NCBI GenBank assembly: GCA_964512765.1
Contig: CAZEKF010000003.1
Location: forward strand, 5,249-69,248
DNA length: 64,000 bases
DNA from: an uncultured Methanosarcinales archaeon
GTDB lineage: Archaea; Nanobdellota; Nanobdellia; Woesearchaeales; GW2011-AR15
Direction: 5' to 3'
Part shown: positions 11,514 through 60,049 of the stretch, in pieces
How positions within the stretch are numbered: the first letter of the stretch is position 1
How the letters are laid out: each line of letters starts with the position of its first letter
Made by a program: the position numbers and the translations under genes
The notes under the pieces: generated by a model
The model's input: the letters and a program-made list of their open reading frames with translations, nothing else
Database searches by the model: none
What the model was told of the DNA's origin: nothing

Positions 11514-12004
11514 GAAAAAAACAATCATCAAAAATAGAAAAAGAAAGAGTATTAGAAAAAATCCAATTGTATAAAGAGACCATAAACGAACAAGATGATT
11601 ATTCTGGTCATTTAAACAAATTAATACTTGACAAAGATAAAGAAATTCAGAAGTTAGAAAGTAAGATACAGACTTTGATTAATAAACAAGAAAAAGAGTT
11701 GTACACTATTTTGAACCCTGTACTAAAAAAATTTTTAAAAGACCGTACTGCTGTTAAAGAAAAAGAACATGAAATGCAAGAGTTACATCTTAAAATTGAG
11801 TCAATTGAAGAAACACATAAGGAAATGATCCAGTCGCTTGAAGAAGAACATAAAAAAGAAATTGAAAAATATGAAAATATATTACGTAAAGAAAGAAAAA
11901 CTATTGGTGAGTTTAAATCATCAATATCTTACCCAATATACCAAATGTCTAGTTCTATGGGAAGAACTCAACTCGGGAAGGTTCTTCAGAAACTTTTAAA
12001 ATAG
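11510..12004 (+). CDS. K/E-rich coiled-coil protein
   Basis: 164 aa with long predicted coiled-coil segments (KEIQKLESKIQTLINKQEKEL, EEEHKKEIEKYENILRKERK) and no Cys. Confidence 0.5.
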   Translation: MRKKQSSKIEKERVLEKIQLYKETINEQDDYSGHLNKLILDKDKEIQKLESKIQTLINKQEKELYTILNPVLKKFLKDRTAVKEKEHEMQELHLKIESIEETHKEMIQSLEEEHKKEIEKYENILRKERKTIGEFKSSISYPIYQMSSSMGRTQLGKVLQKLLK

Positions 12005-12056: not shown

Positions 12057-13601
12057 TTGTTAAAGAAATTAGTGTATAAAACTAGTAAGAATAAAGAGTC
12101 TCTTGTTATACTTGGACATAATGCTGAACTGCACGATAGAATTTGTAAAACACAAGGTGATTTTGAATCTAAACTTGAAAATTTAAAAACAACATTATCT
12201 CAACCAATAACAATAGGAATTACAAGACATAATTTCTTTCTATTAGGAGAAATAATTGACTTCATTAACAAGTTCTATTATCAAGAAACTATGTTCAGGA
12301 AAGTTAAAATAACACTTTTCCCTGTGCAAGAACTAAAAACTAATTTCCTCGCATATCTAAAATACCTTAAACAAAAGTCTGGAGATAAGTTCGAGTTCAA
12401 GATAATGGACTCAAAATTGATTGAGTTGTTTGAAACTTTAGGAAATAATTCAACAGGTGATAAATATCAAGACAGAGAACTAATTAGACTGCTCGGAATT
12501 ATATCAGAACATACGTTCATTGGCCCTGAACAAATTGTAATAGATCCATTTCATAAATGTAATACTAATTGTGTACATTGTTGGAACCATGCGCCTACAT
12601 TAGATCTTACAAAAGAATGGAAAGATCAAATATTGAAACCTGATTTTTTAAAACGTTTAATAGACGACGCTGCCAGGTTAAAAGTTGATCTGTTAGTGTT
12701 CGGCGGTGCAGGTGAACCATTAATGTATCCGAAAATAATCGAAATATTTGAATACGCGTCTCAACAAGGGTTAAAGATTATTGTGTCTACCAATGGTATT
12801 AACTTAACAAAAACCATGACAAACAGGTTGTTAAATTGTAACCTGTCAGAGTTAATATGCAGTCTGCCTGCTGCTTCTAATGCAACATATGAAAAAGTTA
12901 ATCCCATGCATAAAAGTAAAAAAACTTTTGAAACAGTAGTTAAGAATCTTAAATATTTCACCAAACAAAAAACATTACTTAGCAAAAAATCAAAACTTAG
13001 CATGTACCATGTAATACATAACCTTAACTACCATGAGATTAAAAACATGGCAAAGCTTGACCTTGATATAGGTGTTGACATTGTTAGATTTAATTTAATT
13101 AGATTACAAAAAGAATTCATGCACTTGAAACTTAACAAAGCTCAATTGAATTCAATAAAAAACAGTATTGATTTTGTTAAAGCATATTACACAAATAAAC
13201 CAATAATATTACAAAACAATATACATTTCCAGATCAAGAATTTCAAGCCAGAAACAGGTGAATGGTCAGGTTCAATATTAAATGACTGGGGTTGTAAGCT
13301 TGGCTGGTTTTTTTCGTTAGTATTAGCGTCCGGCCAGTTAAGCTTGTGCTGCCATGTTAGAGAGATTGAAAATTTGAAAAATAACAATAGTTTCAAAGAA
13401 GCATGGCTTTCAAAACAATACTCAGATTACAGGTTCAAAGCTAAATATATTAAAAATCATAAAAATACAGAGTTTAAAAATAAAGTAAAGTTGTATGATG
13501 ATAAATGTGAAAATTGTGATAATCATGTTACTTTAATAAAAATTGAAGAAAAAATAAAAAAATACAATCTTGGAGAATTTTTTGAGTATAATGGCAGCTA
13601 A
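12057..13601 (+). CDS. radical SAM protein with an N-terminal extension of about 165 aa (array head gene, outlier)
   Basis: TTG start preceded by GGGGGAG. Motifs DPFHKCNTNCVHCWNH, FGGAGEPLMYP and STNG. C-terminal GCKLGWFFSLVLASGQLSLCC (Cx12Gx4C) and CENC. Confidence 0.8.
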   Translation: MLKKLVYKTSKNKESLVILGHNAELHDRICKTQGDFESKLENLKTTLSQPITIGITRHNFFLLGEIIDFINKFYYQETMFRKVKITLFPVQELKTNFLAYLKYLKQKSGDKFEFKIMDSKLIELFETLGNNSTGDKYQDRELIRLLGIISEHTFIGPEQIVIDPFHKCNTNCVHCWNHAPTLDLTKEWKDQILKPDFLKRLIDDAARLKVDLLVFGGAGEPLMYPKIIEIFEYASQQGLKIIVSTNGINLTKTMTNRLLNCNLSELICSLPAASNATYEKVNPMHKSKKTFETVVKNLKYFTKQKTLLSKKSKLSMYHVIHNLNYHEIKNMAKLDLDIGVDIVRFNLIRLQKEFMHLKLNKAQLNSIKNSIDFVKAYYTNKPIILQNNIHFQIKNFKPETGEWSGSILNDWGCKLGWFFSLVLASGQLSLCCHVREIENLKNNNSFKEAWLSKQYSDYRFKAKYIKNHKNTEFKNKVKLYDDKCENCDNHVTLIKIEEKIKKYNLGEFFEYNGS

Positions 13602-15759
13602 GACCGAAATTAATGCGCATGTAATATCTAAGCTTTTAGATAGAATTAATAATAATACAAAACAAAACTTTGTTTTGCCAAAAAAATACGTGTTTTGTAT
13701 AAATGATTCATGTTCATTCAGGTGCAAAATGTGTTTCAACTGGACTAATAAACCCCACCCTGAGTTAACATATGATGACTGGATAAGGAAACTCGAAGAA
13801 ATAAATGAATATGGTTCTGAAAATGTTGAGATTAACATTATTGGTGGTGAACCTTTAGAAATACCTTGGGTGATTGATTTAATAAAACACGCGAAACAAC
13901 TAGGTTTTATTGTAAGTTTGTCAACAAACGGGTATCATCTTAATAAAACAATGGTTAAGAAATTGTGTAACTCTGGTCTTGATGATATATCCATCTCATT
14001 AGACGGGTTTAAAGCGTCCACGCATGACTATGTAAGAGGCATAAATGGATCTTATGATAAACTTATGGAAGGTATGAAACTGTTACAATTGTATTCAAAC
14101 AGGCCTAGAATAAACATTCAAACTTTAATCATGGGATATAACATAGATGAAATTATAGATTTAACAAAGTTTGTTTCAAAATCAAAATTAGTTGATAAGG
14201 GAATAACGTTCATGGCTGTAATGAAACCTAATGATAATGTTTCTGGTAACTGGAGAACGAATTCTGAACTATGGCCAAAAGATATACCTAAAACACTAAA
14301 GACAATTAAAAAATTAATAGAGTTGAAGAAGAAAGGTTACAGAATCCTTAACTCAAATAAACAGTTAAAGGGATTTTATAATTATTTTAAAGAGCCTGAT
14401 TTGTTTGTTAAAAACAAACCATGTAATGTTAAAGATTTTGGCGCGTTCCTTGAAACAACCGGAAATGTATACATATGCCGAGAACTAGGTGAATTAGGAA
14501 ATATTAAACAAGAAAACATAATTGATGTTCTTAATTCTGACATTTCAGATATTACAAGACTAAGCATGGAAAAATGCACAGAAAATTGTAATTATCTAAT
14601 AAACTGTTTTTACCAGGACGAAGATGAAAATAATGATCCTGTTGTAAGTGTAACAAAACCTGTTAGTAAATCTGTATTACTACAACCAGACAAAAAAATT
14701 AAGTTACATACTAACCTGAAAAACGAATTACTCAATAAAAGTTACAAACCTAATTTCTGCTTGTTAATTATATCTAGGGGGTGTCATTACAAGTGTAAGA
14801 TGTGCAATTATTGGAAAGAAGATAAAAAAACTACTCCAACGTTAACTTATGACGAAATAACTACTATTGTTGATGATCTCAAAAGAATAACTGACGAAGA
14901 TATTGTTGTTCATTTAATAGGCGGTGAGTCAATGCTGTTCCCAAGGTTTGTTGATGTTGTAAAATACATACGGTCAAAAGGGTTCAGGTGTTCAGTTTCT
15001 ACTAACGCAAGTTTATTAACAAAGTCAATGGCTAAAAAATTAATAGACGCTGACATGACAGGAATTTTTGTATCCTTGGACAGTCTTGATGAAAAAAAGC
15101 ATGATTATTTACGAGGTACAAAAGGCGCGTATAAAAAAGTAATGAACGCTATTGATAACTTGTACGAGTACAAGGAAAAGGTGAAATCAAAGTTATGCAT
15201 TGGCGTAACTGTTACTATTATGCAACACAATCTCCATGATGTTATCCCAATTGTTGACTGGGCAAATGATAACCCTAAGATAAATGATGTTTTTTTTAAC
15301 GCTGTCATGCAACCGTTTGAAAATCAAGACCAGTCAAAAGACTGGTATAAAAAAGAACAGTATGAAATGATCTGGCCGCAAGATCTTAACGAAGTTCAAG
15401 AAGTTATTGAACAATTAAGAGAGCGTAAGAAAAAAGGTTGGAAAATATCTAACCCTTCATCTCAATTAAAAGTTGTTAAACAATATTTCAAAACACCGTG
15501 GAGTTATGTGAAAAATCTTGGTATTAAATGTCCGAGGGGTGATTTAGCATTAGAAGTTGACGCTTGTGGTAATATTAACATGTGTTTTTATGACGACCCA
15601 ATCGGTAACATTAGAGAAACTAACCTGTACAATGCATGGTATTCACAAAAAATGTTAGAAATCAGGGAAAGGATTAACACTTGCAGTAAAGACTGTGATC
15701 TTGCAGTGAACTGCTTTTACATGTTAAAAAATATTACAGATTATATTAGTGAGGATTGA
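13570..15759 (+). CDS. fused double radical SAM protein (two complete family modules, subgroup D)
   Basis: Module 1 has INDSCSFRCKMCFNW, IIGGEPLE and CTENCNYLINC. Module 2 has ISRGCHYKCKMCNYW, LIGGESML and CSKDCDLAVNC. The ATG at 13591 is a more likely start than the TTG at 13570. Confidence 0.85.
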   Translation: MENFLSIMAAKTEINAHVISKLLDRINNNTKQNFVLPKKYVFCINDSCSFRCKMCFNWTNKPHPELTYDDWIRKLEEINEYGSENVEINIIGGEPLEIPWVIDLIKHAKQLGFIVSLSTNGYHLNKTMVKKLCNSGLDDISISLDGFKASTHDYVRGINGSYDKLMEGMKLLQLYSNRPRINIQTLIMGYNIDEIIDLTKFVSKSKLVDKGITFMAVMKPNDNVSGNWRTNSELWPKDIPKTLKTIKKLIELKKKGYRILNSNKQLKGFYNYFKEPDLFVKNKPCNVKDFGAFLETTGNVYICRELGELGNIKQENIIDVLNSDISDITRLSMEKCTENCNYLINCFYQDEDENNDPVVSVTKPVSKSVLLQPDKKIKLHTNLKNELLNKSYKPNFCLLIISRGCHYKCKMCNYWKEDKKTTPTLTYDEITTIVDDLKRITDEDIVVHLIGGESMLFPRFVDVVKYIRSKGFRCSVSTNASLLTKSMAKKLIDADMTGIFVSLDSLDEKKHDYLRGTKGAYKKVMNAIDNLYEYKEKVKSKLCIGVTVTIMQHNLHDVIPIVDWANDNPKINDVFFNAVMQPFENQDQSKDWYKKEQYEMIWPQDLNEVQEVIEQLRERKKKGWKISNPSSQLKVVKQYFKTPWSYVKNLGIKCPRGDLALEVDACGNINMCFYDDPIGNIRETNLYNAWYSQKMLEIRERINTCSKDCDLAVNCFYMLKNITDYISED

Positions 15760-15765
15760 AAACTT

Positions 15766-16746
15766 ATGAAACAATTATTAAAATCTCCTGAACTAGTTGA
15801 GATAGTCCTTAACTATAACTGTAATTTAAAGTGTAGAATGTGTTATATTTGGAAAAGTAAAGCATTGGCAAATATTTCAATAGCTAGTTTAAAAAAAGTG
15901 ATTGACCAGATTTCTTTGTTCAAAAATAAACCAAAAATTCAGTTCTTAGGCGGTGAAACATTATTATATAAAGACCTGGTAACTGCAATTAAACATGCAT
16001 CTTATAATAAAATAAAAACTTCTGTAATAACAAACGGATTTCTACTAACAAAAGAAAAAATAATTGAGTTATCAGAAGCTGGGTTGTCAGAGATTATTCT
16101 GTCACTGGACTCGACTGATGAAAAAGTACATAATTATTTAAGGGGAAATTCGAAAAGTTATGAAAAAGTTATGAATGCTCTTACCCTGTTAAAAAAGCAC
16201 GGGCCTAGCATTAATGTGTCAATAAACTCAGTTATTACTGCTGTGAATTTGTACAATTTGATAGATTTGCACAAGTATGTTCTAAAAAAGGATCATATAT
16301 CACAGAATTATTTTGTTGTGCTTGAAAAACCGTACAATTCTAATTACAAACATAACTGGAGACATTCAAGCCCTGTTTCATATCTATGGCCGGATGATAT
16401 AAACTTGGTTAACCAGGTGTTTAACGAATTAATAAAGCTAAAACAAGAAACTAATAAAATAGGTAACACTAAATCACAGTTAAAGAAATACAAATCATAC
16501 TATCTTAACCCAGATAATTTCATTAAAAAATCTGGGTGTATGTTTGGTCATGACCATGTACTAATTAACAACAAAGGTGAAGTTTCGTTATGCGGCGGAA
16601 GCAAAGAAATTGGTAAAATTAATTCAGAAAACATTATTGAGTTATGGAACTCTGACAAAGCAAAAGTACGTAGAAAAGAAATGTTAAACTGTAAACAAAA
16701 CTGTGTCCAGATTTTAAGTTGCGTGTATAAAGATGAAGATGCTTAA
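15766..16746 (+). CDS. radical SAM / partial-SPASM paralog, subgroup A
   Basis: Motifs NYNCNLKCRMCYIW, LGGETLLYKDL, ITNG, LEKPYNSNYKHNW...YLWP, GCMFGHDHVLINNKGEVSLC and CKQNCVQILSC. Confidence 0.88.
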   Translation: MKQLLKSPELVEIVLNYNCNLKCRMCYIWKSKALANISIASLKKVIDQISLFKNKPKIQFLGGETLLYKDLVTAIKHASYNKIKTSVITNGFLLTKEKIIELSEAGLSEIILSLDSTDEKVHNYLRGNSKSYEKVMNALTLLKKHGPSINVSINSVITAVNLYNLIDLHKYVLKKDHISQNYFVVLEKPYNSNYKHNWRHSSPVSYLWPDDINLVNQVFNELIKLKQETNKIGNTKSQLKKYKSYYLNPDNFIKKSGCMFGHDHVLINNKGEVSLCGGSKEIGKINSENIIELWNSDKAKVRRKEMLNCKQNCVQILSCVYKDEDA

Positions 16747-17761
16747 CAAATTAATAGGAAAAACCAAGAAAAAGATAATCCAAATAGAACCGCATCTTGA
16801 AAGTGTATCTATTGTAGTCACTAACATGTGCAATTTTAAGTGTAAGATATGCAATTTCTGGAAAAATACTAACAAAGAAGAAATATCTATTACTGATTTA
16901 AAGAAAATTCTTGACAGTGTAGAAAAATTAAATAACGATAAGTTAGTTGTACAGTTCCACGGCGGTGAAACATTATTATATAAAGATTTGATCAAAGCTG
17001 TCCAGTACGCTACGTCTAAAGGTATAAAAACGTCTATTGTTACAAACGGATATTTTCTTAATGAGGAAAAAATTAACCAGTTAAGCAATGCAGGATTGCA
17101 TGATTTAAACATATCTCTTGATTCTATTAACAAGAACCATCATACTTTTCTTAGAGGAATACCGAACAGTCATGATAAAATAATGGATTGTATTAATTAT
17201 ATGAATAATCATCCAGAGAAACTTAATGCTAACATCAACACAGTTATTACCTCTGTTAATATAAAGAGTATTATTGCAACTTCTAGGTTTGTAAATCATC
17301 AAAAAGGTCTGAAAAACATTTATTTTATAGCTTTAGAAAAACCGTATCTAACAAATTATGACAAGAACTGGAGAAAAACAAAACAAGTTGGTTATCTCTG
17401 GCCAAAAGATAAGAAACTAATTAAGAACGTGTTCAAAAATCTTATTACTGAAAAAAAACAAAACAATAAAATCAGTAACTCTATCACACAATTAAAAAAA
17501 TATTGTTCGTATTACTTAAACCCAAGCAAGAACCTGGCAACTCATGACTGTATTTTCGGATACCTTCATTTACATATAAACAGTCTAGGCCAGTTCAGGT
17601 TATGTGCAAACAGGCATGATCTTGATCCAATCGGATTTTTGCCAGAATCTAATATTTACGACGCATGGAAGTCTGGTAAAGCGCAATGGATCAGGAAAAG
17701 AATGCAAGAATGCAAACAAAATTGTGTGTTAAATTTAAGTTGTGTGTATAAAGATGAGTAA
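16733..17761 (+). CDS. radical SAM / partial-SPASM paralog, subgroup A
   Basis: Motifs TNMCNFKCKICNFW, HGGETLLYKDL, LEKPYLTNYDKNW...YLWP and CKQNCVLNLSC. Confidence 0.88.
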   Translation: MKMLNKLIGKTKKKIIQIEPHLESVSIVVTNMCNFKCKICNFWKNTNKEEISITDLKKILDSVEKLNNDKLVVQFHGGETLLYKDLIKAVQYATSKGIKTSIVTNGYFLNEEKINQLSNAGLHDLNISLDSINKNHHTFLRGIPNSHDKIMDCINYMNNHPEKLNANINTVITSVNIKSIIATSRFVNHQKGLKNIYFIALEKPYLTNYDKNWRKTKQVGYLWPKDKKLIKNVFKNLITEKKQNNKISNSITQLKKYCSYYLNPSKNLATHDCIFGYLHLHINSLGQFRLCANRHDLDPIGFLPESNIYDAWKSGKAQWIRKRMQECKQNCVLNLSCVYKDE

Positions 17762-18827
17762 CAGGTTAAAATTATTTCAAAAAATGTATAATCTTACTAA
17801 AAAACCAGATATCTTTTCACAAGATAATTTAACAGAACCATTACCTGCTCCAAGACATGTGTTAGTAGTGTTGCATAATTATTGCAATTTTAAGTGTAAG
17901 ATGTGTAAAGTATGGGACAAAAAAGATTCTGAAAAAATGTCTTTAAAAACATTGTATAAAATAATAAAAGACATTAGTAAATTCAAGAGTAAAGATTTAA
18001 TACTTCATTTTATTGGCGGTGAAACTTTGTTGTTCAAAGACCTTGATAAAGCTATCGCGTATGCTATGCGTAACAGGTTAACTGTTGATATCACTACAAA
18101 TGGGTATGCTCTTAATAAAAATAAAATAATAGCATTGTCTGAAGCAGGTTTAAGAAATATTAATCTTTCCCTTGATTCAAATGAAAAAGAAGTTCATAAT
18201 GAATTAAGAGGTGTCAAGGATAGTTATCAAAAAATTATGAAAGCTATTCCTCTTCTTGGAAAATACGGGAAAAACATTAATGTTAGCATTAATACAGTTA
18301 TTAATTCATTAAACCTTTCCACATTAATCTCGTTATGTAAATATGTTAAACAGGAAAAACATCTTAAAAATTTATATTTTATTGCAATGGAAAAACCGTT
18401 TGAATCAAATTATGATAATGATTGGAGAAAAACAAGCGATGTTGCATATCTATGGCCAGATAATCCAGATAAAATTAATTATGTTTTTGATGCATTGGTC
18501 AAAGAAACGCAAATTAATGAAAAAATTGGGAACACAGTTTCCCAGTTAAACGCGTATAAAAGTTATTACATTCACCCTGATAAATTCATAAAAAAGCTCG
18601 GGTGCAGGTCAGGTTGCACAAACCTTGAGATTAACATGCTCGGTGAAATTTTTCTTTGTGTCCCTAACCCAAAACTTGGAAGATTAGGTAACATTGATTC
18701 AGAAAACATAGTTCAGTTATGGAACTCAGAAAAGGCTTTCCTAATAAGGCAGGAAATGATGTTATGCAAGAATAATTGTTTGCAAGTGTTAAGCTGTGGC
18801 GAGTATGATGAAGAGGTGTTGACATAA
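17742..18827 (+). CDS. radical SAM / partial-SPASM paralog, subgroup A
   Basis: Motifs HNYCNFKCKMCKVW, IGGETLLFKDL, MEKPFESNYDNDW...YLWP and CKNNCLQVLSC. An alternative ATG at 17754 is in frame. Confidence 0.88.
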   Translation: MCIKMSNRLKLFQKMYNLTKKPDIFSQDNLTEPLPAPRHVLVVLHNYCNFKCKMCKVWDKKDSEKMSLKTLYKIIKDISKFKSKDLILHFIGGETLLFKDLDKAIAYAMRNRLTVDITTNGYALNKNKIIALSEAGLRNINLSLDSNEKEVHNELRGVKDSYQKIMKAIPLLGKYGKNINVSINTVINSLNLSTLISLCKYVKQEKHLKNLYFIAMEKPFESNYDNDWRKTSDVAYLWPDNPDKINYVFDALVKETQINEKIGNTVSQLNAYKSYYIHPDKFIKKLGCRSGCTNLEINMLGEIFLCVPNPKLGRLGNIDSENIVQLWNSEKAFLIRQEMMLCKNNCLQVLSCGEYDEEVLT

Positions 18828-18831
18828 AAAA

Positions 18832-19833
18832 ATGATATTAAAAAAAGGTTTAATGTCTAAACAATCTTTATCAGATAAAATTAATGTTTACATATACTTT
18901 GACAAAGCTTGTTTGTTTAAATGCAAACATTGTTTTTTATGGAAAAAAGATATTGGGTTTAACACGATAAAAACTAATGATTGGATGATGATTTTAGAAG
19001 ATATTTTTAGTTTGTTTCACAGCAATATCAGAGTCTGTTTAGGCGGAGATGGTATGTCCCTTACAGAAGAACTGTTCTTTCCAATTATTAAAAAATGTAC
19101 TGAACTTGGTTTTGAAACTGAGTTAGCATCAAATTGTTATCTAATCAATGATAAAATACTTAAGAAATTAATTGCATACGGACTTGACACACTTGTAATT
19201 TCACTTGACTATTTAACAGAAGAAAAACACGATCTTCAGAGAGGTGTCCAAGGAAGTTATCGTCATGCTATTAAGATAATTAAAAAGAGTAAAAAACTTC
19301 CTTTAAAGATTCAATCTAACTGTATCATTATGAAACCAAATCTTGATGAGATAATACCACTTGCAAAAAAAATTGCTTCAATTAATAATGAAATTACACT
19401 TCATTTCCAGGCATTAGTACAACCTTTCAATACAGAATGCAATGAAAACTGGCATGAAACGTTTAGTGATTTATGGCCAAATAACGACACAACTGTCCTT
19501 GAAGTACTTGATGAGTTAATTAAATTAAAAATGTCAGGATATAAAATAGGTAATAACACAGACCAGATCAACTCTTTTAAATCTTATTTTAAAGATCCTA
19601 GTAAAAGCATAAGAACAAAATGTAATGTTAAAGATGTTAGTTTTCACATTCATTCTAACGGAAGATTACGAAAATGTGATTATATGGAAGATATTGGTTT
19701 TATTAATAAAGACAATTCTTTTAAGGATTTAATATTTTCAAACCAGTATAAAAAAGTCACTGAAAAAATGAGGAACTGTACAAAAAATTGTATATTAATG
19801 GTGAATTGTAACTATGAAAAAGAAAAAAGTTAA
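18832..19833 (+). CDS. radical SAM / partial-SPASM paralog, subgroup B
   Basis: Motifs DKACLFKCKHCFLW, LGGDGMSL, IIMKPNLDE, QALVQPFN...LWP and CTKNCILMVNC. Confidence 0.88.
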   Translation: MILKKGLMSKQSLSDKINVYIYFDKACLFKCKHCFLWKKDIGFNTIKTNDWMMILEDIFSLFHSNIRVCLGGDGMSLTEELFFPIIKKCTELGFETELASNCYLINDKILKKLIAYGLDTLVISLDYLTEEKHDLQRGVQGSYRHAIKIIKKSKKLPLKIQSNCIIMKPNLDEIIPLAKKIASINNEITLHFQALVQPFNTECNENWHETFSDLWPNNDTTVLEVLDELIKLKMSGYKIGNNTDQINSFKSYFKDPSKSIRTKCNVKDVSFHIHSNGRLRKCDYMEDIGFINKDNSFKDLIFSNQYKKVTEKMRNCTKNCILMVNCNYEKEKS

Positions 19834-20680: not shown

Positions 20681-20690
20681 TTTCATAGTT

Positions 20691-21785
20691 ATGAATTTTA
20701 CAATTAAAAAACGTTTGATAACAGAATTTGCAAAAAGAGCATATGATAGCCAAGTATACAGTCTTGATTATTTGAATGTTAATATCATTGAAGGTTGTAT
20801 TTCAAAGTGTATTATGTGTGATTTATGGAAAAATAAAGTAAAAAAACTCAGCTTTGCTGATTTTTCAAAAGCGCTCGACATTATTTCATCTCATCTTTCT
20901 TTATCAAAAGATATTATGATTAGCATTGGCGGCCACGGAGAACCAATGATGAACTCTGATATTTTTGAAATTATTAAATTATGCAAAAATAAAGGATTCT
21001 CTACTAGCTTGGTAACAAATTCATTGTTAATAACAAAAAATAGTGCGTATAGCTTGATATCAAGTGGGTTGGCACATATAAATTTCTCATTTGAAAGTAT
21101 AGACACTAAGATTAATGATCTGATTAGAAATGCCAAAGGCCATCATAAAAAAGTTTTGAAATCAATCGAACTTTTGCATAAGTTAAAGCAAAAACATAAT
21201 AAAAAATGTGATCTTGGTTTTCTAACAACTGTTTGTGCAAAAAATATCTGTTCAATTCCAGATTTAGTTAGGTATGTGAACAACAATCCAATGATATCTT
21301 CTATAAGGTTCCAAGCAATTACCCAACCTTTTGGCGCGTCGCCTGTTAAAAACTGGCACACCAACCAAAAATATGCGTTCCTATGGCCTAAAAAATCTGA
21401 TGTGGAAAAAGTGTACAATTTTTTAATTAAAATAAAAAATAGTTCAAAAATTGAAAATTCGTTAAGGTCATTAAAAACTCAGAAAACGTACTTTTTAAAT
21501 CCTGGTAAATATAACAAACATATATCCAAAACTTGTAATGTTTACCAAGGTGCTATAATGAATGTTAATGGTGATATAACAGTATGTCCTATGGGCGAAA
21601 ATATTTTTACTCCTATTGGAAAAAATGTGATTATTAATATTAATAATGAAAAACCAAACGTATACTTGATTAGGAAGAGATTGCTTAAAATTCAAAATCT
21701 TGTTAAAAAATGCAGCATGAACAATTGTCATATAATGTTAAACTGTAATTATACAGGCAAAGAACAATTTTATGATAAGATTTAA
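20691..21785 (+). CDS. radical SAM / partial-SPASM paralog, subgroup C
   Basis: Motifs IEGCISKCIMCDLW, GGHGEPMMN, VTNSLL, QAITQPFG...FLWP and CSMNNCHIMLNC. Confidence 0.88.
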   Translation: MNFTIKKRLITEFAKRAYDSQVYSLDYLNVNIIEGCISKCIMCDLWKNKVKKLSFADFSKALDIISSHLSLSKDIMISIGGHGEPMMNSDIFEIIKLCKNKGFSTSLVTNSLLITKNSAYSLISSGLAHINFSFESIDTKINDLIRNAKGHHKKVLKSIELLHKLKQKHNKKCDLGFLTTVCAKNICSIPDLVRYVNNNPMISSIRFQAITQPFGASPVKNWHTNQKYAFLWPKKSDVEKVYNFLIKIKNSSKIENSLRSLKTQKTYFLNPGKYNKHISKTCNVYQGAIMNVNGDITVCPMGENIFTPIGKNVIININNEKPNVYLIRKRLLKIQNLVKKCSMNNCHIMLNCNYTGKEQFYDKI

Positions 21786-21799
21786 CCGAGGATGGACAT

Positions 21800-22861: not shown

Positions 22862-22866
22862 TAAAA

Positions 22867-23886: not shown

Positions 23887-23947
23887 ATTATCAACTGAAG
23901 ATTTAAAAACAAATACCTTATCTGTTAAAAGAAGATAAAATACAAAA

Positions 23948-25051
23948 ATGAATCAAACAAAACAGTTCAAAAATAAAATAAAACCTGAGTTTGCATGTAT
24001 TGGGATAACAGATTATTGTTTTTTCAAGTGTAAAATGTGCAATAAATGGCAGGAAGATATAAAAGTTATAAAAGGCACGCCTCGTCCAACATTTGAACAA
24101 TATAAACTGTTCATAGAAGATCTTGCATATTTAGTAAGAGACGATCTAAAAGGACCAGTTGACAACAGGTTCACGTTAAACTTTGCCGGTGGTGAAGCAT
24201 TGACACATTCAATGACTCTTCCTCTTGTTGAATATGCTGCTAAATTAGGGTTTAAAACACTTATTGCTACAAACGGAAGTATGCTCACTGAACATATGAT
24301 AAAAAGACTTAACCAAGCTAAACTTACCTCTCTAAGCATATCATTAGACAGTTTAGATCCAGAAATACATGATTCATTACGAGGTTACAAAGGCGCGACA
24401 AAATTTATCATGGCTGCTCTTGAACATTTAAAAAAGTATGAATATCCAAAAGTTGGAATTTGTACAGTAATAAACAAAAAAACATACAAAGGAATTCCTG
24501 AACTTGTTAACTGGGCGAGAAAACATGAAACTGTAAAATGGCTTTATTTCATGGCAGTCATGCAGCCTAACAACACAGTTTTTGAACCAGGATGGTATAA
24601 AACTGATCAGTTTAAGTTTTTATGGGAAAACAAGTCAGAGAAAGTTATTGAAATTATTGATTATCTTATCAAAGAAAAGATTGTTGAAGATGAAGCTGTA
24701 AAAAATAATAACCTCAAACAACCTTTGTTAACAAACAACTTCTCTCAGTTAAAAGCTTTCCGGGATTATTTCGCTAATCCTGAAACGTTTGTAAAAAGCA
24801 ACTCGTGTTGTAACATGGACCTGGCAATACAAACAACTGAAGTAGGCGATATTTTCATGTGTTTTCATAAAAAAAGGATAGGTAACATACGGGAAAATAG
24901 ATTAAAAGATGTTTGGAATACTGATGGATCTGATGTGACAAGAGAAGATATTAAATCATGCACAACAAACTGTCACACTCTTTTAAACTGTTACTATGAA
25001 AATGAATATCCTTTTGAAATTATCAAAACCATAAAATCCAGTTTAAAATAA
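23948..25051 (+). CDS. radical SAM / partial-SPASM paralog, subgroup D
   Basis: Motifs TDYCFFKCKMCNKW, AGGEALTH, ATNG, MAVMQPNN...FLW and CTTNCHTLLNC. Confidence 0.88.
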   Translation: MNQTKQFKNKIKPEFACIGITDYCFFKCKMCNKWQEDIKVIKGTPRPTFEQYKLFIEDLAYLVRDDLKGPVDNRFTLNFAGGEALTHSMTLPLVEYAAKLGFKTLIATNGSMLTEHMIKRLNQAKLTSLSISLDSLDPEIHDSLRGYKGATKFIMAALEHLKKYEYPKVGICTVINKKTYKGIPELVNWARKHETVKWLYFMAVMQPNNTVFEPGWYKTDQFKFLWENKSEKVIEIIDYLIKEKIVEDEAVKNNNLKQPLLTNNFSQLKAFRDYFANPETFVKSNSCCNMDLAIQTTEVGDIFMCFHKKRIGNIRENRLKDVWNTDGSDVTREDIKSCTTNCHTLLNCYYENEYPFEIIKTIKSSLK

Positions 25052-25056
25052 AAAAA

Positions 25057-26049
25057 ATGCAAGTATTAAAACCTGTTTATTCAGATATTGGTATCATTGA
25101 ATCGTGTAATTTTAAATGCATTATGTGTAAAATGCACGAAATACCTTTTCCAAAAAAAGATGCAATGATTCCAATACAAAGATGGAAACTTTTTTTTCAA
25201 CATATGAAAGAAATAGCGGGTGAAGGGTTTGTGTTTAATATGCCAGGAGGCGAACCTTTGTTACATCCAGACGTGTTTGATATCATAAAAATCGCGTCAA
25301 CTAATGGTCTGAAACCATTGTTATCAACAAACGCGTTTTTAATTAACAAACAAATAGCTGATAAACTCATAAAAAACGGTTTATTTGGAGTTACAATTTC
25401 TTTAGACAGTTCAATTCCAGATGTACATGATCAAATAAGAGGAGTGAGAGAAAGTTTTGATAAAGTTGAACAAGCAATAAGATACCTTGATTTTCACAGT
25501 AAAATCTACAACGCAAAGGTTAGTATTGGCATCCAGTCAGTTATACAAATGTCTAACCTGGATAATATTCCTGATTTGGTTCAGTATGTTGAAAACAATC
25601 CTTTGATTGAAAGAATTAATTTAAACTTATTAATGAGACCTAACAATTCTAAGGAGGATAAGGAATGGTACAAGAACGAGTTCAAGGAATTGTGGCCTGA
25701 TGATTCTGATAAAGTTGATCAGATAATAGATGAATTAGTTGAATTAAAAGCTAAAAATAAAGTTCAAAAATTGTTGAACACAATAACACAGCTTAAATCA
25801 TACAAAGAATATTTCCGTGATCCAAAAAAAACACCAAAATTGTTAAGTTGCAATTATGACAAAGCCATCTGTACAAATAGTTCAGGCGACATTCATCTGT
25901 GCTTTCATTATGATAAGATAGGTAATATCAATACAGACAGGTTAATTGATGTCTGGAATTCAAAACAAGCAAAAACTGTTCGTGAAAAAATTAAGAATTG
26001 TCACGTAACAGACTGTTGGTTCAGATTAAATTGTTTATACAGTGATTAA
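25057..26049 (+). CDS. radical SAM / partial-SPASM paralog, subgroup D
   Basis: Motifs IESCNFKCIMCKMH, PGGEPLLHPD, STNA, LLMRPNN...ELWP and CHVTDCWFRLNC. Confidence 0.88.
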   Translation: MQVLKPVYSDIGIIESCNFKCIMCKMHEIPFPKKDAMIPIQRWKLFFQHMKEIAGEGFVFNMPGGEPLLHPDVFDIIKIASTNGLKPLLSTNAFLINKQIADKLIKNGLFGVTISLDSSIPDVHDQIRGVRESFDKVEQAIRYLDFHSKIYNAKVSIGIQSVIQMSNLDNIPDLVQYVENNPLIERINLNLLMRPNNSKEDKEWYKNEFKELWPDDSDKVDQIIDELVELKAKNKVQKLLNTITQLKSYKEYFRDPKKTPKLLSCNYDKAICTNSSGDIHLCFHYDKIGNINTDRLIDVWNSKQAKTVREKIKNCHVTDCWFRLNCLYSD

Positions 26050-27118
26050 TAAAATGTTACAATATTTACAAACAGAGGTTAATAAGTTCTTAGCAAACAT
26101 TAGAATGACAAATCAAGCTTCCGGTGTGAAAAAAGAAATTATCTTTCCCGTAAGTAACAAACCAAAACAAATTTCATTATTATTTTCGCATCGTTGTTTG
26201 TTCAAGTGCAAACAATGTTTTCTGTGGAAAAGAGAAAATAATTATGAACCGTTAAAGTTAGACACGTGGAGTACATTATTAAAAGATCTCAAAAAAATAT
26301 ATGGTTCTAACTTAAATATTCAAATTGGTGGAGACGGTATGGCAGAGATAAATGAAAAACTTATCACAATAATAAAAACCTGTTCTGAACTTGGACTTCA
26401 TACTGTATTCACTACCAATGCTTATTTAGTTAATAGAAGAATCCTAAAACGAATAGTTGATGAAGCTGGTTTGAAAAATCTGTTATTTTCACTTGATTAT
26501 ATGGTAGCTGAAAAACATGATAATCAAAGAGGAATAAAATATAGTTATAAGCATGTGCTTGATTTACTAGAACATGTTGAAAAATATGAAAATCTAGAAA
26601 TTGTTTTAAGTTGCATTATAATGAAACCTAATCTTGATGAAATATTAGATATTGTTAAATTTGTTGATCAGTTAAAACAAGTGGATAGGGTCTTTTTTCA
26701 GGTAATTTCTCAACCTATGGGCTTAAACTTTGACTATAATTGGTATAAAGATAAAAAATTCTGTTTTCTCTGGCCTGATAAAGATAAAGCTGCCCGGATC
26801 ATTGATGAACTTATTACGTTGAAGAAAAATGGTTCAAAGATAGCTAATTCACTCAATCATTTAAGATATTTTAAATATTATTTTTTGAATCCTAACAAAT
26901 ATATAAAAGACAACAGATGCAATGCTGAAGACCTTGGCATGGAAATTGGCATTGATGGCAATGTCAGTATATGTAACAAAATGAGAAATCTGGGTTCTTT
27001 AAAAAAACATTCAATTTCAGAGTTATTAGCCATGAACTATAAAAGTATTGCTGGAGAGATATCAAACTGTTCTCTAAACTGTCATCAGGTTATGAATTGC
27101 AGGTTTTCAGAAGAGTGA
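26042..27118 (+). CDS. radical SAM / partial-SPASM paralog, subgroup B (tandem duplicate copy 1)
   Basis: Motifs SHRCLFKCKQCFLW, IGGDGMAE, IIMKPNLDE and CSLNCHQVMNC. The track start is a GTG. The in-frame ATG at 26054 (MLQYLQ...) is more likely. Confidence 0.88.
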   Translation: MINKMLQYLQTEVNKFLANIRMTNQASGVKKEIIFPVSNKPKQISLLFSHRCLFKCKQCFLWKRENNYEPLKLDTWSTLLKDLKKIYGSNLNIQIGGDGMAEINEKLITIIKTCSELGLHTVFTTNAYLVNRRILKRIVDEAGLKNLLFSLDYMVAEKHDNQRGIKYSYKHVLDLLEHVEKYENLEIVLSCIIMKPNLDEILDIVKFVDQLKQVDRVFFQVISQPMGLNFDYNWYKDKKFCFLWPDKDKAARIIDELITLKKNGSKIANSLNHLRYFKYYFLNPNKYIKDNRCNAEDLGMEIGIDGNVSICNKMRNLGSLKKHSISELLAMNYKSIAGEISNCSLNCHQVMNCRFSEE

Positions 27119-28191
27119 TTAATAAAATGTTACAATATTTACAAATAGAGGTTAGTAAGTTTTTAGCAAATATTGGAGTAACAAAACCTGCTTCATTTAT
27201 TAAAAAAGAAATTATCAATCCAGTAAGCGAAAAACAAAAGCAAATTTCATTATTATTTTCGCATCGTTGTTTGTTCAAGTGCAAACAATGTTTTCTGTGG
27301 AAAAGAGAAAATAATTATGAACCGTTAAAGTTAGACACGTGGATTACATTATTAAAAGATCTTAAAAAAGTGTATGGTCATAACCTAAAAATTGAAATTG
27401 GTGGAGATGGTATGGGTGAGGTAAATGAAGGTCTTCTCACAATAATAAAAACCTGTTCTGACCTAGGATTTAATACAACGTTCACAACAAATGCTTATTT
27501 AATAAACAGGAGGATCCTAAAACGAATAATTGATGAAACAGGTTTGAAATGTCTAGTGTTCTCTCTTGACTACACGACTCCTGAAAAACATGATAATCAA
27601 AGAGGCATGAACAATAGTTATAAGCATGTGCTTGATTTACTTGAACATGTTAAAGCGTTTGAAGTACAAGAAGTTGTATTAAGTTGTATTATCATGAAAC
27701 CTAATCTTAGCGAACTAATACAAATTACAAAGTTTGTTGATCAATCAAAACAAATAACACAAGTACAGTTCCAGGCTATTGCTGAACCTCTTGGGCTTGC
27801 ATTTTCTGAACCTTGGTTCCAAGATAAAAACTACAGTTATTTATGGCCTGGCACATCAAAAGTTACAAAAGTTATTGATAATTTAATTGAAATGAAAAAA
27901 AAAGGATCAAAAATTGCTAATTCTATTAGTCAGTTAAATTATTTTAAACATTATTTTAAACATCCTTTAAAATACGCAAAAAAAAATAGTTGTAATGCTG
28001 AAAATCTTGGCATGGAAATTGATGTTGATGGTCAAGTGAGTATTTGTAACAGAATGAAAAAGTTGGGTTCATTAAAACAACATTCAATCTCTGAGTTGTT
28101 GGCAATAAATTATAAAATATTAGCTAAAGAAATATCAAACTGTTCTCTGAACTGTCACCTCATCATGAACTGCAGGTTTTCAGAAGAATAA
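27097..28191 (+). CDS. radical SAM / partial-SPASM paralog, subgroup B (tandem duplicate copy 2)
   Basis: Motifs SHRCLFKCKQCFLW, IGGDGMGE, IIMKPNLSE and CSLNCHLIMNC. By homology with copy 1 the real start is probably the ATG at 27127 (MLQYLQ...). Confidence 0.88.
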   Translation: MQVFRRVINKMLQYLQIEVSKFLANIGVTKPASFIKKEIINPVSEKQKQISLLFSHRCLFKCKQCFLWKRENNYEPLKLDTWITLLKDLKKVYGHNLKIEIGGDGMGEVNEGLLTIIKTCSDLGFNTTFTTNAYLINRRILKRIIDETGLKCLVFSLDYTTPEKHDNQRGMNNSYKHVLDLLEHVKAFEVQEVVLSCIIMKPNLSELIQITKFVDQSKQITQVQFQAIAEPLGLAFSEPWFQDKNYSYLWPGTSKVTKVIDNLIEMKKKGSKIANSISQLNYFKHYFKHPLKYAKKNSCNAENLGMEIDVDGQVSICNRMKKLGSLKQHSISELLAINYKILAKEISNCSLNCHLIMNCRFSEE

Positions 28192-28223
28192 TTATATAAA
28201 ACAATAAATAATGTACAAAAACA

Positions 28224-29231
28224 ATGATTAATCAAATCTTACAACCGGAATTTTGCAACATTAGTGTTAATGAAGAATGTTTTTTTAAGTGTAAAATGTG
28301 TTATAAATGGCAACCTGATAAGTTTATACCTAAAGATGCGCCAAAATTATCAACTGATGATCTAAAAAAATTCATATTTGGTTTAAGAAAAACTGTTGAT
28401 AAAGAATTCTTGATTAATTTTGCAGGCGGTGAAACTCTTCTTAGAAAAGATATGTTTGAAGTTATTAAATATGCTCATAACTTGGATTTCACAACAAACC
28501 TTGCGTCTAATGGTTGGTTGATTAATGAAAACATTGCTAGAGATATGATTGATTCTGGGCTAGATAGTATTAATTTCTCAATAGATGGATCAACTAAAGA
28601 AATTCATGATAACATGCGAGGTAGGAACGGTTCGTTTGACAAACTAATGACTGCTATTAATCATTTAGTGAATTATAGAGATCAGAAAGGTCTTGATAAA
28701 ATGCAGTTCAGGATAGCTGCACAGGCAGTAATCTGCGCTTTAAATCTAGAAGATATGCCGAAGTTAGTAAATATGATAGATAACCATCCTGACATCTTAT
28801 CAATTAAATTTAATGTTGTCATGGAACCCAACAATACTGGACCTAATCAGAACTGGTATAAAGAAGAATATAGTTATTTATGGCCAAATGACCTGGATCT
28901 GGTTGATGATGTTTTTGACAAACTAATAGAAATGAAAAAAAATAATTCGAAAATACCTGACAAACTATACCAGTTAGAAGCTTACAAAAGATATTTTAAA
29001 GATCCAACAACTTTTGTTAAACATGGACATTGTAACTTTGACAAAGCTATTAACTTAAGTTCAACAGGTGACATGTTCCTATGTTTTAATTATGCGTGTA
29101 TTGGTAACATTAAAAACACAGACTTTGTAACTGCATGGAACTCTGATAAAGCAAACAAAGTAAGACAAGAAATTATAAAATGCGAAAAAAATTGTCATTT
29201 TCTTATTAATTGCAACCTAGAAGAAGATTAG
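28224..29231 (+). CDS. radical SAM / partial-SPASM paralog, subgroup D (last gene of the array)
   Basis: Motifs NEECFFKCKMCYKW, AGGETLLRKD, ASNG, VVMEPNN...YLWP and CEKNCHFLINC. Confidence 0.88.
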   Translation: MINQILQPEFCNISVNEECFFKCKMCYKWQPDKFIPKDAPKLSTDDLKKFIFGLRKTVDKEFLINFAGGETLLRKDMFEVIKYAHNLDFTTNLASNGWLINENIARDMIDSGLDSINFSIDGSTKEIHDNMRGRNGSFDKLMTAINHLVNYRDQKGLDKMQFRIAAQAVICALNLEDMPKLVNMIDNHPDILSIKFNVVMEPNNTGPNQNWYKEEYSYLWPNDLDLVDDVFDKLIEMKKNNSKIPDKLYQLEAYKRYFKDPTTFVKHGHCNFDKAINLSSTGDMFLCFNYACIGNIKNTDFVTAWNSDKANKVRQEIIKCEKNCHFLINCNLEED

Positions 29232-59983: not shown

Positions 59984-60049
59984 TTTTAATTTTTTGTAAA
60001 TAAAAACCTCAATAAAACCCCTTAAAAAAGAATAAAAATAAACCTTTTA

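Follow-up and report, generated by a model that had tools for sequence, protein, structure and literature searches.

A new, probably twitch-type radical SAM subfamily, arranged in multi-paralog arrays in a polysaccharide-pathway context in Woesearchaeota and Omnitrophota

We analysed a 64-kb stretch of DNA (hereafter the window; all coordinates refer to it) from contig CAZEKF010000003.1 of an uncultured archaeon assigned to the Woesearchaeales (GenBank assembly GCA_964512765.1). At 12057-29231, fifteen successive open reading frames (ORFs) on the + strand encode sixteen modules of radical S-adenosylmethionine (SAM) enzymes. They represent a new, probably twitch-type radical SAM subfamily with an unprecedented array architecture, placed in the context of a polysaccharide pathway. 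Radical SAM enzymes with SPASM/twitch domains are known to work singly, tailoring peptides, cofactors or, in a few cases, antibiotic sugars. The uncharacterised subfamily described here occurs as conserved arrays of 4 to 15 paralogs, accompanied by B12-binding and long radical SAM partners. The arrays are located inside operons for assembly and export of surface glycans, in one archaeal and one bacterial lineage whose cells are very small and probably depend on hosts. Judging from neighbourhood, fold and motif, we lean towards reading the array as a set of cytoplasmic radical enzymes, each specific for a site or step, that tailor a polyprenyl-phosphate-linked glycan or its sugar precursors.

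The array and its signature

The fifteen genes run head-to-tail, with junctions ranging from an overlap of 32 nt to a gap of 61 nt; an ORF check confirmed this arrangement, on which the preliminary description of the sequence was based. Gene 2 (729 aa) consists of two modules, giving sixteen modules in fifteen genes. GC content is uniform along the window at about 29%, and no tRNA or Rfam features were found in its 64 kb. Array genes are numbered g01-g15, designations of the type L007 stand for related loci fetched for comparison, and bit scores in the following list are those of the family hidden Markov model (HMM).

12057-13601, +: g01, long radical SAM/SPASM-like enzyme of 514 aa; cluster motif CNTNCVHC; 165-aa N-terminal beta/alpha extension; 82 bits
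13570-15759, +: gene 2, two fused family modules, seen as HMM domains of 352 and 383 bits
13570-14664, +: g02a, family module with no clear ortholog
14665-15759, +: g02b, conserved core type; orthologs 76-78% identical in L007 and L009
15766-16746, +: g03, variable-copy group A; 345 bits
16733-17761, +: g04, group A; 324 bits; 45-49% identical to g03 and g10
17742-18827, +: g05, group A; 329 bits; 50% identical to g03 and g10
18832-19833, +: g06, group B; GGDGM replaces GGE; 319 bits
19814-20680, +: g07, degenerate module of 288 aa; 163 bits; neither CxxxCxxC nor C-terminal Cys
20691-21785, +: g08, conserved type; 259 bits; orthologs 46-49% identical in L007 and L009
21800-22861, +: g09, group B; GASGM motif; 326 bits
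22867-23886, +: g10, group A; 328 bits
23948-25051, +: g11, conserved core type; 368 bits; orthologs 71-73% identical; clade takes in Omnitrophota members
25057-26049, +: g12, conserved core type; 358 bits; orthologs 66-67% identical
26042-27118, +: g13, group B; recent duplicate of g14 (72% amino acid identity)
27097-28191, +: g14, group B; 335 bits
28224-29231, +: g15, most conserved core type; 398 bits; orthologs 77-79% identical

All fifteen genes match Pfam Radical_SAM (PF04055) with 39-153 bits (gathering score 29.5), and the CxxxCxxC motif is found in every module except g07. Fourteen modules share one layout: CxxxCxMC-xx-W, GGE, TN, SLD…H..RG and W…LWP, followed by five C-terminal Cys in the pattern C-x12-G-x4-C ... 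C-x3(4)-C-x5-C. In an alignment of these fourteen modules, C19, C23, C26, G63, N90, S113, P189, W198, W208, Y245, P249, C258, C276, C309, C313 and C319 (g03 numbering) are invariant. The signature, that is CxxxCxxC together with the five C-terminal Cys, is at least 90% conserved across 106 diverse relatives; the third cluster Cys is preceded by Met in 101 of 121 modules and by an aromatic residue in a single one. The earlier statement that all genes encode the same layout thus holds for fourteen of sixteen modules, failing for g07, which has lost both sets of Cys, and for g01, which carries its N-terminal extension and a different C-terminal Cys pattern and scores only 82 bits on the family HMM, versus 259-398 bits for the other array modules (g07: 163).

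A full SPASM domain (PF13186 / TIGR04085) has seven or more Cys and holds two auxiliary [4Fe-4S] clusters. Its first element, Cx9-15Gx4C, is present here as C258-x12-G271-x4-C276, (nearly) invariant in the fourteen modules and at least 90% conserved in the 106 relatives. In place of the second (Cx2Cx5Cx3C plus a downstream Cys), only C-x3(4)-C-x5-C is found, the fourth and the downstream Cys being absent, and because of this altered second element the modules lie outside the full-SPASM definition. Pfam SPASM gives weak matches in 11 of the 15 genes (17-35 bits, cut-off 21.5) and none in four. Sequence matches in the PDB span the N-terminal core only; a profile of the C-terminal domain retrieved only the twitch domain of BtrN (4m7t), marginally (E 0.012, 19 bits), with family C258 and C276 aligned to the Cys of the BtrN SC...PC motifs, which we take to be the auxiliary-cluster ligands C169 and C188. 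A partial SPASM, or twitch-like, C-terminal domain, as proposed from the first inspection, is thus what the modules probably possess.

Group B (g06, g09, g13 and g14) has GG[DS]GM in the position of GGE, and the same motif change is kept in group B of L007 and L009. Over the group B genes of the window, L007 (10067, 12213, 16067) and L009 (3277), the motif reads GG[DSE]GM, and H or Q replaces M before the third cluster Cys. The shift alters the SAM pocket in this lineage specifically, while the enzymes are intact in other respects. Module g07 is probably non-catalytic, since CxxxCxxC and the C-terminal Cys are both gone; cluster-less counterparts of 164-211 aa are nevertheless retained in L007 and L009 at 37% identity.

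The leaders preceding the cluster motif measure 15-55 aa. They had been considered too short for a RiPP (ribosomally synthesised and post-translationally modified peptide) recognition element (RRE) or PqqD-like domain, and indeed Pfam finds no such domain in them; no precursor peptide was found either. The reported lack of a small Cys-rich ORF in or beside the array is likewise borne out, but two conserved small coiled-coil ORFs lie directly upstream. No signal peptide or transmembrane segment is apparent in the array proteins, judged by eye, which fits modification ahead of export.

The array is not a product of faulty assembly. The 21 kb around g03 are 100% identical in JGI assembly 3300007511 (123.6-kb contig) and ENA assembly ERZ23498639, which derive from different samples, and the protein is carried on at least 24 contigs. 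Pairwise amino acid identity among modules is 18-50%, with only g13/g14 reaching 72%, and long similar stretches at the DNA level exist between these two alone. Collapse of repeats is impossible because the paralogs are merely 18-50% identical. For g13/g14, the nonsynonymous and synonymous rates (dN 0.19, dS 0.64) give dN/dS 0.29; the catalytic apparatus is intact and under selection. An assembly artefact or a decaying pseudogene array, to which a family gene frameshifted elsewhere in the window and split genes in some strain variants might point, is a practically negligible alternative in view of the independent assemblies, the divergence of the paralogs, the intact array ORFs with conserved catalytic residues, the dN/dS value and the syntenic arrays of other genomes.

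The strain variants are represented by L003 and L004, which are 99.8-99.9% identical to window 5756-26711 and differ by indels. A 42-bp in-frame insertion is found in g04, g01 and g06 are split in L003, and in L004 two separate ORFs (385 and 319 aa) take the place of the two-module gene 2. These indels could be population-level variation or assembly noise.

Two further members of the family lie outside the coordinates given in the preliminary description:

34115-35197, +: further family module (the seventeenth, more divergent); 236 bits, full length; clusters with g08
41908-42818, +: split family member; N-terminal half 41908-42399 (173 bits), C-terminal half 42357-42818 (146 bits)

The split member has a frameshift within an A11 run (about 42342-42352), and its N-terminus begins at the third Cys of CxxxCxxC; possible explanations are a pseudogene, an error in sequencing or slip-strand phase variation at this site. 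Altogether, the window contains 15 family modules, 14 inside the array and one outside.

No curated family of Pfam or NCBIfam captures the modules over their full length. Pfam matches are generic or weak, and NCBIfam returns 16-66 partial matches per gene, none near its cut-off, including GeoRSP, W_rSAM_matur, AhbD, NirJ, MoaA, viperin, PTO1314 and N_Twi_rSAM (NF033640; 51-83 bits, cut-off 170). The BlsE family (TIGR04466) scores 38-57 bits per single-module gene and 100 for gene 2 (cut-off 400), anSME (TIGR03942) 48.6 bits (cut-off 349), the desII model 20-34 bits (cut-off 450) and viperin (NF038283) at most 89 bits per module (cut-off 180), the latter over profile positions ~4-180 only; NCBIfam models of RiPP maturases all remain far beneath their cut-offs. 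Readings as AhbD/NirJ, MoaA or tungsten maturases were dropped, genes for tetrapyrroles, molybdenum cofactor or aldehyde ferredoxin oxidoreductase not being nearby. We found no description of the family or its arrays in the open-access literature on DPANN archaea, Woesearchaeota, Omnitrophota, O-antigen/Wzm and BlsE; a paper on Cariaco biosynthetic gene clusters and a preprint on giant proteins of Omnitrophota mention radical SAM only generically.

Related arrays and their partners

An exhaustive profile search yielded 1,994 representatives at E < 1e-30, the best 150 of which are all full-length with at least 270 bits; the family comprises more than 150 clusters at 50% identity. Its size is taken from this HMM search, a word-indexed homolog search being too insensitive here (8 matches). 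Named relatives carry only the designation 'radical SAM protein'; they belong to Woesearchaeota/Nanoarchaeota and many of them to Candidatus Omnitrophota. The g15 ortholog on the L007 contig, for instance, is named 'radical SAM protein [Candidatus Woesearchaeota archaeon]'. Such relatives mark the source of the window as a DPANN archaeon of low GC content, and study codes among the sample names may point to anoxic marine water (Cariaco Basin) as its habitat.

When the family HMM was scored on about 90 fetched loci, the scores fell into two groups separated by a gap (175 to 250 bits), and arrays of 4 to 15 modules turned out to be the usual form. There are 13 modules in Omnitrophota L010 (GCA_028716965.1), 11 in L007, 9-10 in L027, 8 in L009 and L012, 7 in L015, 6 in L016 and 4-5 in L011, L014, L025 and L026; singletons are represented by L021 (GC 52%) and a distant high-GC clade. 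The array is thus not a one-off; a large family is normally arranged in this way in Woesearchaeota and Omnitrophota. Domain fusion is extensive in Omnitrophota and kin. Two to four family modules may be joined in one chain, the longest of 1,493 aa. Other fusions join an unassigned 700-aa N-terminal region to a g01-type radical SAM enzyme (1,185-1,291 aa), a B12-radical SAM to a radical SAM/SPASM enzyme (1,401 aa), or family modules to tetratricopeptide (TPR) repeats (examples of fusions: L011 12177-20100; L014 12143-21110; L026 1328-7398; L095 2812-6499; P0029-P0153).

The search for syntenic arrays elsewhere was successful, in related archaeal contigs as well as in further genomes. Arrays at about 50-79% protein identity are present in L007/L008, L009 and a 41-kb contig, and a contig scan revealed a syntenic relative in 'MAG: archaeon isolate SI037_bin40', found with an alignment as query and not with g03 alone. 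Upstream, the related arrays are flanked by glycosyltransferases of families 4 and 2 (GT4, GT2), a B12-radical SAM gene and two small coiled-coil ORFs; downstream, by a polytopic membrane protein resembling spermine synthase and by a GT2 gene paired with a deacetylase gene. Reciprocal comparison with L007 and L009 identified 1:1 orthologs of g01 (60%), g02b, g08, g11, g12 and g15, besides the g07 counterparts mentioned above. Copy number varies in group A (4, 3, 2) and group B (4, 3, 1) between the window and the related arrays, and gene order is kept as g01-g02b-A(n)-B-[deg/g08]-g11-g12-(B)-g15. Given the conserved orthologs and their order, there are about seven functionally distinct types plus two expandable groups, not redundant copies. 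One diversified battery, as previously envisaged, is therefore too simple a picture; the paralogs fall into conserved types with 1:1 orthologs and groups of variable copy number.

In a neighbour-joining tree (rough, no bootstrap), Omnitrophota and archaeal members intermix within the g02b and g11 types, the g12 and g15 types join other low-GC loci of unassigned origin (L012, L015), and groups A, B and g08 are restricted to low-GC loci. This suggests that the multi-paralog cassette is older than its spread between the two phyla.

The first gene, g01, belongs to a separate long radical SAM lineage that is co-conserved with the arrays. Most of the arrays examined have a full-length ortholog (33-60% identical), which is a protein by itself or makes up the C-terminal ~500 aa of a longer one (832-1,291 aa). 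The N-terminal domain has no RRE, Pfam or PDB sequence match. An AlphaFold2 model of g01, built from a 4-sequence alignment (predicted local distance difference test, pLDDT, 66), is closest to DesII in Foldseek, then to BlsE. Interpretation of the N-terminal domain as an RRE is unsupported, as this model shows alternating beta/alpha units instead of a winged helix. Its interpretation as a relic half-module did not hold either, with same-register matches of 3-8 bits only and no confirmation by hhalign.

Radical SAM genes of other kinds accompany the array in the window:

6495-7901, -: B12-binding radical SAM enzyme (class B, methyltransferase-like); Pfam B12-binding and Radical_SAM
32811-34112, +: class-B-like radical SAM enzyme; best partial matches HpnJ, BchE and PhpK
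36332-37756, +, and 49877-51217, -: further B12-binding radical SAM copies (Pfam)
47871-48950: another radical SAM/SPASM gene

The best NCBIfam matches of the B12-radical SAM proteins are BchE, HpnJ and PhpK, all under cut-off. Such genes go with most arrays, three to four of them lying in the window; beside the array they are seen in L007/L008, L010, L011, L016, L021, L026 and L096, and a faint B12 match is present in L012. The divergent family member at 34115-35197 lies between the genes at 32811-34112 and 36332-37756, forming a second small radical SAM cluster downstream of the array. In all, more than 20 radical SAM genes are located in the 64-kb window.

The two small coiled-coil ORFs directly upstream of the array are the following:

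11241-11513, +: 90-aa coiled-coil ORF, paralogous to the N-terminal region of the ORF that follows; no Pfam match
11510-12004, +: 164-aa coiled-coil ORF, whose C-terminal tail, FKSSISYPIYQMSSSMGRTQLGKVLQKLLK, is conserved

A counterpart of the 90-aa ORF lies upstream of the array in L007 and L008 (85 aa). The tail, about 30 aa following the coiled coil, has the consensus F[KR][SG]S[IV]xYP[FI][FY]…G.T.[IL]G..[IL].K[IL][IL]K and recurs in L007 (3739-4161, 140 aa) and inside the arrays of L012 (7380-7757 and 16394-16735; 125 and 113 aa) and L015 (4884-5273, 130 aa). It matches no Pfam family, and its profile, run against 5.8 billion proteins, gave one uninformative match. The same motif also ends a GT1-family glycosyltransferase of 535 aa (L012, 17600-19204), which links the small ORFs with glycan machinery and not with a peptide substrate. 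The tail is probably a docking or membrane-association motif of this machinery.

Glycan neighbourhood and the substrate of the array

Every annotated neighbourhood of the arrays carries glycan genes, in more than 10 independent loci of two phyla. Those of the window, together with the remaining features, are:

682-2169, +: PMT_2-type GT-C glycosyltransferase (Pfam)
2143-2823, -: GT2 (Pfam)
2820-3923, -: GDSL/SGNH protein (Pfam)
5781-6485, +: protein with an FGE-sulfatase domain (FGE, formylglycine-generating enzyme), 234 aa, 10 Cys; no NCBIfam match
7935-8756, -: GT2 (Pfam), divergent from the array; syntenic in L007/L008
8746-9798, -: NAD-dependent sugar epimerase/dehydratase (Pfam)
9840-10994, -: GT4-type glycosyltransferase (Pfam); syntenic in L007/L008
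29241-31277, -: membrane protein of 678 aa with ~11 transmembrane helices and a spermine/spermidine-synthase-like (aminopropyltransferase) domain; Spermine_synth 30 bits
31324-32064, -: GT2 (Pfam), paired with the deacetylase
32067-32774, -: polysaccharide deacetylase (Pfam), paired with the GT2
37772-39097, -: Cys-repeat protein of 441 aa with a signal/transmembrane segment and 20 Cys; no Pfam or NCBIfam match
44800-46512, -, and 46588-47814, +: PMT_2 GT-C genes (Pfam)
56815-58280, -: second GT2-deacetylase pair
58277-63126, -: two carbamoyltransferases (568 and 571-578 aa) and a DUF5989 mini-ORF

At least three related archaeal contigs, L007 and a 57.7-kb contig among them, have the gene for the 678-aa membrane protein conserved directly downstream of the array. 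A GT2-deacetylase pair follows the array immediately in L009 (9330-10758) and in the 41-kb contig. Such pairs resemble ArnC/ArnD logic, if the analogy holds; in the latter, a polyprenyl-phosphate aminosugar is made and then deacylated. Together with the three PMT_2 GT-C genes, they suggest lipid-linked aminosugars as donors for extracytoplasmic transfer. The FGE-sulfatase-domain protein and the carbamoyltransferases are probably further glycan-tailoring functions.

In Omnitrophota, genes for a WecA-like phosphoglycosyltransferase and a flavoprotein open a conserved operon; those for a Wzm-like ABC-2 permease and a long Wzt/TagH-like ATPase come next, ahead of the long radical SAM, B12-radical SAM and radical SAM/SPASM genes and then the array, with GDSL or LtaS-like 'sulfatase'-family genes interspersed. 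The WecA-like protein, permease and ATPase are all present in L011 and L014, permease and ATPase in L016, and an ABC (ATP-binding cassette) ATPase in L027 and L096; the NCBIfam scores of this exporter operon are all below cut-off (WecA 97 bits, Wzm/KpsM 57, TagH/Wzt 152-194). Further neighbours are GT4 in L010; ABC ATPase, GDSL, GT2 and GT1 in L012; GT2 and deacetylase in L009; Alg9-like and PMT_2 GT-C, GT2 and carbamoyltransferase in L021; GT1 and GH5 in L095; PMT_2, ABC ATPase and GDSL in L096. GDSL genes stand in or beside the arrays of L012, L014, L015, L016, L027 and L096.

Pfam 'Sulfatase' genes lie within some Omnitrophota arrays, those of L025 (3465-6465), L026 (11036-14066) and L095 (7685-8974, 14253-16499). 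The L025 and L026 copies lack the C/S-x-P-x-R formylglycine motif, and they have Thr-containing LtaS/EptA-like sites and N-terminal signal/transmembrane segments; because the motif is absent and these segments are present, they look less like sulfatases than like phospho-transferases or phosphodiesterases of the LtaS/EptA type.

Among the substrate classes suggested in the preliminary description, a glycan or lipid-linked sugar is consequently the best supported (more than 10 loci), while nothing points to TPR or Cys-repeat proteins. TPR domains are fused to family enzymes in L095 and to a GDSL protein in L027, which suggests a scaffolding role. The Cys-repeat protein meant there is probably the 441-aa protein listed above, whose ten C-x10-11-C pairs, the last six spaced by about 34 residues, give it the look of a disulfide-stabilised extracellular repeat.

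Fold comparison points in the same direction as the neighbourhood. The AlphaFold2 model of g03 (pLDDT 89.8, predicted template-modelling score 0.89) contains the beta/alpha core, and the Foldseek comparison proposed at the outset places BlsE (PDB 7vob), an enzyme acting on a sugar ring, at the top (E 4.8e-15; template-modelling, TM, score 0.72/0.72; 327 versus 326 aa). The next matches are anSME, SuiB, CteB, viperins, ChlB, DesII, SkfB and EpeE.

We therefore envisage the following way of working. In each module, CxxxCxMC would bind the SAM-cleaving [4Fe-4S] cluster, and one auxiliary cluster would probably be held by four of the five invariant C-terminal Cys; the fifth, speculatively, could be a spare, perhaps a hydrogen-atom donor as in radical SAM epimerases. 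The 5'-deoxyadenosyl radical thus generated would abstract a hydrogen atom from a sugar residue, either of a polyprenyl-phosphate-linked surface glycan or of its nucleotide-sugar precursors, still on the cytoplasmic side. Each of the roughly seven paralog types and the two variable-copy groups would have a site or step of its own, with epimerisation, dehydrogenation, deoxygenation, decarboxylation and cross-linking as possible reactions, and the co-encoded B12-radical SAM enzymes might add C-methyl groups. The polymer would be built by the glycosyltransferases, the machinery probably being organised at the membrane by the coiled-coil tail proteins, and would be exported by Wzm/Wzt-type ABC exporters in Omnitrophota or transferred, probably by GT-C enzymes, in the archaeon.

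Several points weigh against this glycan reading. What the data show is the enzyme family with its signature, the conserved arrays and the genes around them; the chemistry, the cluster number and the kind of substrate are inferred, the last from gene neighbourhood and fold similarity. We know of no described polysaccharide pathway that uses even a few such enzymes, so precedent is weak. The five C-terminal Cys fit neither the twitch nor the SPASM ligand set cleanly, and group B is devoid of the GGE Glu. Peptide-modifying enzymes (anSME, SuiB, CteB, SkfB) match the g03 fold at TM 0.60-0.69. No Wzm/Wzt exporter is encoded in the window, where GT-C enzymes of the PMT_2 type are found instead, and the conserved flavoprotein (amine-oxidase/CrtI-like), together with the polyprenyl context, would fit a lipid substrate equally well.

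A bolder form of the glycan reading, which we regard as possible and advance tentatively, is that of an assembly line of site-specific radical editors, encoded by a cassette that has moved between Archaea and Bacteria. After polymerisation of a lipid-linked glycan, the editors would change individual sugar residues in their stereochemistry, oxidation state or carbon skeleton. This would allow ultra-small, reduced-genome organisms (Woesearchaeota, Omnitrophota) to obtain an exotic surface polymer from one or two common sugars; radical SAM chemistry would, for the first time, dominate a polysaccharide pathway, with a new functional class of twitch-type radical SAM enzymes. Even in its more general form, the glycan reading, if true, implies envelope polymers modified at unactivated carbons and made by no known pathway, and about seven new reaction types for enzymologists, with clear orthologous sets. 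The findings also bear on how DPANN archaea and Omnitrophota build their host-contact surfaces and on cross-domain transfer of a large multi-gene cassette.

The most serious competitor, unlikely as we consider it, is lipid tailoring, in which isoprenoid chains of the polyprenyl/dolichyl phosphate carrier or of membrane lipids would be modified at successive positions, in the manner of the ring synthases of glycerol dialkyl glycerol tetraethers (GDGT), Tes/GDGT-MAS or the hopanoid radical SAM enzymes. The multitude of paralogs could parallel the many isoprene units of a long chain; the CrtI/amine-oxidase-like flavoprotein is conserved in the Omnitrophota operon; and the companion B12-radical SAM proteins match best HpnJ, BchE and a 'lipid biosynthesis B12-rSAM' model. 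Profile matches to GDGT-MAS (7tol, 71 bits) and NCBIfam Tes also exist, but they are confined to the N-terminal radical SAM core and fall far under the family cut-offs. Moreover, the fold is matched best by an enzyme acting on a sugar, the neighbours that recur invariably encode glycosyltransferases and exporters of glycans, and none of about ten annotated loci contains a prenyltransferase, a geranylgeranylglyceryl or digeranylgeranylglyceryl phosphate (GGGP/DGGGP) synthase or another lipid-synthesis gene.

Nor do we give much credence to RiPP-like maturation of peptides or proteins, with cross-links and epimerisations introduced into the tail of the coiled-coil ORFs or into TPR/Cys-repeat proteins, as in the proteusin/polytheonamide systems. 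Such a role would accord with the Foldseek matches (anSME, SuiB, CteB, SkfB, ChlB, EpeE), with the B12-radical SAM companions and with the small ORFs bearing an invariant ~30-aa tail beside or inside the low-GC (archaeal-like) arrays, and anSME shows that an enzyme can act on a peptide without having an RRE. However, no RRE/PqqD domain was found, even in the N-terminal extension of g01, and neither a protease nor an exporter of the peptidase-containing (PCAT) type. The tail ends a 535-aa GT1 glycosyltransferase and hence behaves like a docking motif rather than a core peptide; in the Omnitrophota arrays no tail-motif ORF or obvious precursor was found, one unremarkable 47-aa ORF excepted; and the Cys-rich protein has a signal/transmembrane segment and regular C-x10-11-C pairs typical of disulfide repeats.

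A viperin-like battery modifying nucleotides against viruses, or another defence system, is highly improbable. The modules partially match prokaryotic viperin models (NF038283 up to 89 bits per module, PADLOC pVip 40-92 bits), and viperins are among the fold matches (TMt 0.68-0.74 in Foldseek), but the model matches are limited to profile positions ~4-170 of 257-281, the common radical SAM core, leaving the NCBIfam cut-off of 180 unreached. Viperins have no Cys-rich C-terminal domain, no defence genes are nearby, and the arrays are syntenic and lie within glycan operons across phyla, not in defence islands.

Scarcely credible, finally, are anSME-like maturases of sulfatase-family or FGE-linked enzymes: in spite of the second-best fold match, the FGE-sulfatase-domain protein at 5781-6485 and the Pfam 'Sulfatase' genes interspersed in the L025, L026 and L095 arrays, TIGR03942 scores far under its cut-off, the 7-8 Cys of a full SPASM are absent, the L025/L026 'sulfatases' have Thr-containing LtaS/EptA-like sites in place of C/S-x-P-x-R, one anSME serves many sulfatases and most arrays have no sulfatase gene.

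Comparison with known systems

BlsE, the radical SAM cytosylglucuronate decarboxylase, is the closest system in fold and cluster motif. Like the family, it is a single domain without an RRE and carries GGEP and CxxxCxMC, the latter as C31xxxC35xM37C38 (PMC3715490). It differs in sharing only 17% identity and in being a single gene within a nucleoside-antibiotic cluster (blasticidin S), with no array. The family may work like BlsE, of which it is not a member.

BtrN, a 2-deoxy-scyllo-inosamine dehydrogenase and the prototype of twitch-domain radical SAM enzymes, aligns with the family at the two Cys named above, and its substrate is carbohydrate-like; its auxiliary cluster lies in a truncated SPASM fold; its whole-model TM score is, however, 0.46/0.60, its length 250 aa, and its later ligands form CxxC and not C-x3-C-x5-C. 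The structures of anSME, the anaerobic sulfatase-maturating enzyme and prototype of the full SPASM enzymes (PDB 4k36-4k39), give the second-best fold match (TM 0.64-0.67) and agree with the family in size, in lacking an RRE and in the Cx9-15Gx4C element, whereas their 7-8 auxiliary Cys and two auxiliary clusters contrast with five Cys in the family. Enzymes of the DesII/AprD4/NeoN type abstract hydrogen from sugar carbons by radical chemistry (deamination, dehydration, epimerisation), and DesII is a fold match of both g01 and g03; unlike the family, they act on nucleotide-sugars or pseudo-oligosaccharides in antibiotic pathways, with one enzyme per step.

Batteries that edit many positions of a polymer are known from the mannuronan C5-epimerases AlgE1-7 and from PoyD with PoyB/C. 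Here the analogy is one of function only, with no homology claimed: several paralogous or iterative enzymes edit a finished polymer, and PoyB/C parallel the B12-radical SAM companions. The AlgE enzymes are not radical enzymes and are secreted, and the Poy substrate is a peptide with an NHLP (nitrile hydratase-like) leader. In its likely way of working, the family resembles BlsE, BtrN and DesII, while standing apart from all of them as a subfamily of its own.

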